DNA of 25,148 bases from contig CBFDAW010000001.1 of NCBI GenBank assembly GCA_965602865.1, forward strand, positions 1 to 25,148, in the 5' to 3' direction. This document shows positions 604-1,206 of this stretch, piece by piece (the stretch's first letter is position 1; every line of letters starts with the position of its first letter). The DNA is from an uncultured Thermoplasmata archaeon. Lineage in GTDB: Archaea; Thermoplasmatota; Penumbrarchaeia; JAEHCK01. The notes beneath the pieces were generated by a model that saw nothing but the letters and a program-made list of their open reading frames with translations, was not told the origin of the DNA and ran no database searches. Both the position numbers and the translations under genes were made by a program.

Positions 604-1206
604 TTAAAACTCTCGTAATTTTCTATCTAGTTCTGCATAATATTCCCGGAAATATCTTGATCCCGTCATATCTGAAGCATTGATAATATGCTCATAACAG
701 AAATATAGCTCTCCATGTATCCTTTTATACTGTTGCAGCTTTGGAAACTCCTTATAATAGTTCCTAGCTAATTTTAAGATTATATCATATTTCTCCATCG
801 AATCGTATAATATTAACGCTTTAGCAAGATACGCTGTAAATTTTTTCAATATTTCCAAATAGGAATAGCTCTTTTCCTCTTGCAACTTTTCTTTTAATTT
901 ATAAATCTCTCTAGCCAATTCCAAATAGATATCAGCAGCTTTTGCAATTTCAGATAAATCTTCATAGGATTTGGCTAACCGATGTAAAAAGCGAAAATAT
1001 TGGTCCCTTTCGAATTTGATTGAACTACCTCTTAAATTCTTATATAATTCATCAAGGCATTCGATAGCTTTATTTCGATTCTTTTCACCATATAAGCTAG
1101 CAGCTTTCAATAGATAATTCATAACTTTCGCTTTGTCCCCCTTTTTTATTATTAACATCTCTGCACTGGTTTTATAAGAATCAGCTGTTTCATCACCATT
1201 CGTCAT
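604..1206 (-). CDS. Helical-repeat (TPR-like) protein with alpha-SNAP-like sequence pattern
   Basis: 200 aa, all-helical pattern with TPR-like segments (YLLKAASLYGEKNRNKAIECL; FLHRLAKSYEDLSEIAKAADIYLELA). Same strand as, and directly downstream of, GTPase copy 1. The CDS is secure; the SNAP label is by-eye only. Confidence 0.7.
   Translation of the reverse strand: MTNGDETADSYKTSAEMLIIKKGDKAKVMNYLLKAASLYGEKNRNKAIECLDELYKNLRGSSIKFERDQYFRFLHRLAKSYEDLSEIAKAADIYLELAREIYKLKEKLQEEKSYSYLEILKKFTAYLAKALILYDSMEKYDIILKLARNYYKEFPKLQQYKRIHGELYFCYEHIINASDMTGSRYFREYYAELDRKLREF

Follow-up and report, generated by a model that had tools for sequence, protein, structure and literature searches.

Does the archaeal gene that lies at positions 604 to 1206 of the stretch studied here encode a SNAP? 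The stretch, hereafter the window, comprises positions 1 to 25,148 of contig CBFDAW010000001.1 from an uncultured Thermoplasmata archaeon, and the gene codes for a small helical protein, P0001, next to the gene of a small GTPase. SNAP/Sec17 is a eukaryotic trafficking factor, and no prokaryotic SNAP was found in the literature searched. The original prediction, made from the spacing of a few residues, was that P0001 may be an archaeal SNAP-family fold genetically linked to a Rab-like GTPase, or equally a TPR-like protein. If an archaeal SNAP were real, it would inform how the membrane-fusion machinery of eukaryotes arose; the evidence falls short of that claim. P0001 does not belong to the SNAP/Sec17 family and is rather probably a soluble, lineage-restricted adaptor of the TPR-like alpha-solenoid type, for which the acidic tail of a neighbouring membrane protein is the best candidate ligand.

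The open reading frame (ORF) runs on the minus strand from an ATG at 1206-1204 to a stop codon at 606-604 and encodes a soluble, all-helical, TPR-like protein of 200 residues. Its translation contains both strings on which the original prediction was founded, TADSYKTSAEML...KAKVMNYLLKAASLYGEKNRNKAIECL and HRLAKSYEDLSEIAKAADIYLELA, and the product of the adjoining gene matches Pfam Ras, confirming that a protein with these strings stands next to a Ras-family GTPase. The ORF is a genuine conserved gene and not a chance ORF, because it has 35 homologues, the alignment of the family (A1, 33 aligned members) displays 32 invariant columns, and nonsynonymous differences are low whereas synonymous ones are saturated. 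Compared with the genes of two related loci, L002 and L003, the P0001 gene presents nonsynonymous differences (pN) of 0.17-0.21 against saturated synonymous differences (pS) of 0.65-0.78, highlighting purifying selection. The 35 homologues, retrieved by a word-indexed protein search, share 54-72% identity, count approximately 200-220 residues and are all metagenomic.

No hydrophobic segment was found in P0001, the N-terminus of which is acidic and polar (MTNGDETADSYK), and the isoelectric points of the family span 5.3 to 8.9. In A1, the strongest conservation is located at the C-terminal cap, roughly ELFFCYEHIINAAD-TGSRYFREYY, and three lysines of the central helix (K121, K122 and K129) are also conserved. 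The C-termini themselves vary across the family and a conserved terminal leucine is absent. About 14 of the 33 members (e.g. P0003, P0010 and P0014) carry an acidic C-terminal extension of 17-21 residues, of which P0001 is devoid; near its end, a KGPY motif is conserved in 11 of these approximately 14 homologues. Such an extension might act as a short linear motif or, alternatively, dock onto its own protein as a tail.

The family is narrow and lineage-restricted. When 1.84 billion cluster representatives were searched exhaustively with phmmer, a single full-length cluster (50% identity) plus fragments was obtained and, beyond that cluster, just weak multi-stretch matches to three long proteins. 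These three consist of TPR_12/TPR_10 arrays, and two also carry CHAT domains. The family profile detected no relative in 40 related genomes or in a species-representative genome collection, and 400 genomes drawn from across the phylum gave no credible match. One weak match in genome G327 (E 0.008, 29 residues with stops) was disregarded. The scan of metagenomic contigs gave just the two related loci L002 and L003, and the search for longer fused forms of the family found none, which is weak evidence for their absence. NCBIfam gave no match, and a protein atlas returned unnamed clusters and TPR clusters only, with a low recognition score. The P0001 family is a new, uncharacterised and narrowly distributed family of TPR-like solenoids with an unusually conserved C-terminal motif.

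The structure of P0001 was predicted with AlphaFold2 from A1, and an all-helical model of nine long and two short helices was obtained (predicted local distance difference test, pLDDT, 90.6; predicted template modelling score, pTM, 0.87). The model displays the twisted sheet of antiparallel alpha-helical hairpins seen in SNAPs as well as the solenoid of stacked helix-turn-helix hairpins seen in TPR proteins, and the regular superhelix geometry of the latter was not observed. P0001 does not appear to be a canonical TPR protein and is best described as a flatter, irregular TPR-like solenoid. Its top structural neighbours are all TPR-like solenoids. In the Foldseek search of the PDB, the TPRs of BtubC and LGN came first by E-value (8.5e-4 to 4e-3), with template modelling (TM) scores of 0.34-0.40 and root-mean-square deviations (rmsd) of 13-14 Å; the best TM-scores listed were those of Sec17 (9nlu_G, 0.54, rmsd 5.2) and alpha-SNAP (3j96_G, 0.50). 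The Z-score of Sec17 (12.3) against that of the kinesin-light-chain and LGN TPRs (13.2) amounts to a tie, and Sec17 gave the lowest rmsd, 3.2 Å over 180 residues.

The specificity of this resemblance was assessed with a control, a 201-residue TPR_12 stretch of a STAND protein encoded in the window, which was aligned with seven paralogues from the same genome and modelled with a pLDDT of 96.8. In a viral structure library, the P0001 model retrieved SNAP-named proteins of giant viruses at ranks 1, 3, 4, 7, 8, 13 and 22 (E 6e-3 to 7e-2), and the control brought up a largely overlapping set at ranks 2, 3, 8, 9, 14, 16, 18 and 47, with E-values of 3e-6 to 1.6e-3. Any TPR-like model retrieves SNAPs in this way, usually scoring better than P0001 does. 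When A1 and the control TPR family were compared profile to profile, the probability was 0.75%. Because the control segment retrieves SNAPs with better scores, the likeness of the P0001 model to Sec17 is largely generic, and the low global rmsd to Sec17 is the sole SNAP-specific signal that remains. The structural comparison with Sec17 that the original prediction had proposed is in agreement with a helical-repeat fold of Sec17-like overall shape.

The same picture emerges from the Pfam models, of which that for SNAP (PF14938) has a curated cut-off of 25 bits. With P0001 as query, no SNAP match was obtained even at E up to 10, and only DUF4003 and single TPR repeats were detected, all sub-threshold (TPR_14, 14.1 bits; TPR_6, 13.3 bits). 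Among the A1 members, TPR_6 matched 26 of 33 (best E 2.5e-7), TPR_14 matched 14 of 33, and SNAP, counted at E up to 1, matched 12 of 33 (best E 3e-5). In the ten members scanned individually, the SNAP matches reached 14-20 bits (best 19.8), all below 25. They are collinear and fall in a single register, residues 5-144 being aligned with model positions 52-182, and this is the register of the motif spacing put forward in the original prediction. The shared register is suggestive of a SNAP relationship, yet the SNAP model is not discriminating, because it responds more strongly to ordinary TPR proteins of the same genome and is also matched in control prokaryotes. Across the genome it gave 24 matches with scores of up to 35 bits; every one lies in a long TPR protein, and the P0001 gene is not among them. 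It also found matches in 11 of the 14 control prokaryotes and, of the three distant TPR relatives mentioned above, two scored 30 and 54 bits with it.

The STAND protein from which the control was taken (NACHT/NB-ARC/ATPase_2; 19661-22159, plus strand; 832 residues with C-terminal TPR_12 repeats) obtained 31 bits with the Pfam SNAP model, above the cut-off, and is a clear case of the model cross-reacting with ordinary TPRs. The SNAP signal of the P0001 family showed no specificity over ordinary TPR proteins. Furthermore, the family profile hidden Markov model and two family members, compared with the sequences of the PDB, did not retrieve any SNAP at E up to 10. The weak matches that did appear (designed repeat proteins, Vps4, CDC23 and calcium sensors) were regarded as spurious. 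The comparison of SNAP and TPR models, also put forward in the original prediction, went against the SNAP reading, the SNAP matches being sub-threshold and non-specific.

In the 1QQE structure, the C-terminal end of Sec17 lies within a C-terminal helical bundle. Three features define SNAPs functionally: a hydrophobic membrane loop between alpha1 and alpha2 (residues 27-32 of alpha-SNAP, PMC12923601; F21/M22 of Sec17, PMC5643095), leucines at the extreme C-terminus that activate Sec18/NSF (L291/L292 of Sec17, PMC5643095) and conserved concave-face lysines in contact with the SNARE bundle (K159/K163 of Sec17, PMC5643095). The P0001 model aligns with residues 50-231 of Sec17 only. The N-terminal hairpin with the membrane loop is not present in P0001, since the alignments start at Sec17 residue 50 and the N-terminus is polar and acidic, and the NSF-activating C-terminal end is not present either, the protein stopping opposite residue ~231 of the 292 of Sec17. 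P0001 thus matches the middle of SNAP only and lacks the membrane loop and the NSF-activating C-terminus, both needed for SNAP function. In the genome, which is 83% complete, the SNARE and synaptobrevin models (PF05739 and PF00957) gave at best 16.6 and 17 bits, under the cut-off and no better than in control bacteria. The family membership put forward in the original prediction finds no support in Pfam, the end regions or the controls; the helical-repeat fold and the Sec17-like overall shape stood.

Among the alternatives to a TPR-like adaptor, one supposes that P0001 is a truncated but true relative of SNAP/Sec17, a minimal "SNAP core" that would lay its concave face along an elongated helical substrate and possibly hand it to an AAA+ ATPase. 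The single register of the Pfam alignments and the low rmsd to Sec17 are what this hypothesis can call upon, and both are set against a model that cross-reacts with TPRs and a control that retrieves SNAPs more strongly; we consider it unlikely. It is quite unlikely, too, that the family as a whole is a prokaryotic relative of the twisted-sheet core of SNAP/Sec17, minimal and lacking both membrane loop and NSF-binding end. If an archaeal SNAP core were real, a SNAP-like scaffold would exist outside eukaryotes and their giant viruses, in an archaeon without actin-family or Snf7 matches, and the SNAP core would seem to stem from a small archaeal TPR-like adaptor.

For the TPR-like adaptor itself, the following mode of action can be proposed. 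Approximately four and a half TPR-like helix-turn-helix hairpins stack into an open, gently twisted sheet, and P0001 would most likely act as a passive protein-protein interaction adaptor, like TPR-like proteins generally, the peptide or helix of a partner being held against the concave face and the highly conserved C-terminal cap. The candidate ligand is encoded by the convergent gene at positions 3 to 563 (plus strand), which is cut by the contig end so that its C-terminal part remains. This part is the cytoplasmic tail of a membrane protein of the single-pass type; it is highly acidic, and its last residues are ...KLKKLKERIKDQEL. The orthologue in L002 (6489 to 7670, minus strand) possesses a TSP3 repeat of the bacterial type and a single transmembrane segment, directly after which RRRKKE is read; its acidic tail is long and terminates in KLRKLKQRINDQEL. 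The acidic tails of the window and L002 are 34% identical over 134 residues (E 0.004). The convergent membrane-protein gene is the only neighbour conserved between the window and L002, and its tail is the best candidate ligand. Its final segment is a conserved amphipathic helix (...KLKxRIxDQEL), and the tail is, on the comparison of these two loci, a possible ligand of P0001.

The P0001 gene would be transcribed from its own promoter. An AT-rich, TATA-like box is located at 1222 to 1236 (minus strand), 16-30 nucleotides upstream of the ATG, and an AT-rich block occurs at about the same distance from the ATG in the window, L002 and L003. Because this box is kept in the three loci despite unrelated DNA farther upstream, it suggests a putative promoter belonging to the P0001 gene; from the position of the box, we infer that the leader of the transcript is short or absent.

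A second alternative makes P0001 an effector or regulator of the adjacent Ras-family GTPase, i.e. a GTPase-activating protein (GAP), a guanine nucleotide exchange factor (GEF) or an effector-like partner, co-transcribed with it. TPR-like domains often act as GTPase effectors, and this was counted in its favour. The GTPase gene (1272 to 1799, minus strand; 176 codons from a TTG at 1799; Pfam Ras, 2.8e-34) ends 65 nucleotides upstream of the P0001 gene on the same strand, the adjacency is identical in contigs from two other studies, and a strain of 95-99% similarity bridges the spacer. A second Ras-family paralogue is encoded 1.7 kb away (2884 to 3414, minus strand). The original prediction had called the neighbour Rab-like; its adjacency and its Ras-family membership are established, and a likeness to Rab is supported no further than the Pfam Ras match. 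Against a functional partnership, the GTPase frame contains an in-frame TGA at 1752-1754 (minus strand), at the first P-loop glycine (GDxxVGKT) of the paralogues, where KKKICLL*DWGVGKTSL is read in the upstream GTPase versus KFKICLIGDWGVGKTSL in a paralogue. This TGA is not a one-off assembly error, because contigs from two different studies show the same sequence there; the upstream GTPase gene is probably either recoded or a pseudogene. In the nearby paralogue, switch I is shorter by about six residues, among them the TLG segment (DDIYISTKKRM versus DDYIATLGTKITKKRV in the first copy and DDKYIVTLGTKVTKKRI in the other paralogues). Judged from their sequences, both GTPases of the locus look impaired.

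The conservation of the adjacency also weighs against a GTPase effector. In L002, the P0001 homologue is preceded by 0.7 kb without any ORF and then by a divergent gene for a T4 gp19-like tail-tube protein; in L003, the 419 nucleotides upstream of the homologue hold no ORF; and no GTPase or GTPase remnant was detected upstream by tblastn in either locus. The genome contains 20 Ras-family matches, the other 19 being free of internal stops. The seven paralogues inspected have varied neighbours, and no second copy of P0001 was found in the genome. This GTPase expansion is shared by six related genomes of the class (7-23 copies), compared with 0-2 in three other families of the class, and the P0001 family was not found in those six genomes. 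Together with the promoter-like box carried by the spacer itself, these data suggest that the adjacency is confined to this species and does not reflect a conserved operon partnership, and an effector role towards the GTPase is quite improbable. The genetic link suggested in the original prediction is limited to this local adjacency; looking for GTPases beside the relatives, as it had recommended, revealed none in the two related loci.

The host is an archaeon, as indicated by the ribosomal proteins S3Ae and L15e and the archaeal pilin encoded in the window, and it originates from marine and subsurface sediment metagenomes; complete genomes among its relatives in the phylum measure 1.4-2.7 Mb. 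Neither actin-family nor Snf7 proteins were matched in the 83%-complete genome. An Asgard affiliation of the host is unsupported by these searches, and the organism belongs to a GTPase-rich archaeal lineage without the Asgard hallmark in the actin-family and Snf7 checks.

The last alternative, that P0001 belongs to a mobile element, a virus or a defence island, would explain its patchy distribution, the family being absent from the closest genomes despite some 35 metagenomic copies, and could appeal to the tail-tube gene upstream in L002 and to the STAND NTPase-TPR gene and mobile-element-like repeats first noticed in the window, but it is highly improbable given that the family profile had no match in 2.9 million viral contigs, that PHROGs gave none, that the flanking genes of the window are housekeeping ones (ribosomal S3Ae and L15e, a UbiA-family prenyltransferase) and that the GC content is not distinctive.

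Other features of the two loci were recorded. Positions 3727-8514 of the window (plus strand) encode a surface protein of 1595 residues that contains FG-GAP and CARDB repeats as well as a C-terminal transmembrane segment; its acidic tail, long and rich in lysine and glutamate, recalls in style the one encoded at 3-563. In L002, a gene for a zinc-ribbon and JAB/MPN metalloprotease is found at 3065-4129 (plus strand), and the T4 gp19-like tail-tube gene at 4550-5053 (minus strand), the latter being a hint that a contractile-injection or prophage-like element may lie close by.

The case of P0001 serves above all for annotation and as a caution: ordinary TPR proteins readily give Pfam SNAP and Foldseek SNAP matches, and where a genome has about 20 GTPases, little can be read from one of them being a neighbour. 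Set beside alpha-SNAP/Sec17 (PF14938; PDB 1QQE, 3J96 and 9CRU), P0001 shows 12% identity, covers residues 50-231 of Sec17 and, unlike these proteins, has neither the alpha1-alpha2 hairpin nor the Sec18/NSF-activating leucines. As to the single-repeat TPR models, most family members show matches to TPR_6 or TPR_14 at residues ~75-103 and ~30-57, and at least one of them, P0029, passes the curated cut-off (31.3 versus 26.3 bits); unlike in Pfam TPR proteins, most of P0001, including the invariant C-terminal motif, matches no model. Among the closest known systems are the TPR domains of the kinesin-light-chain, LGN-Pins and BtubC type (Pfam TPR_12 and TPR_10).
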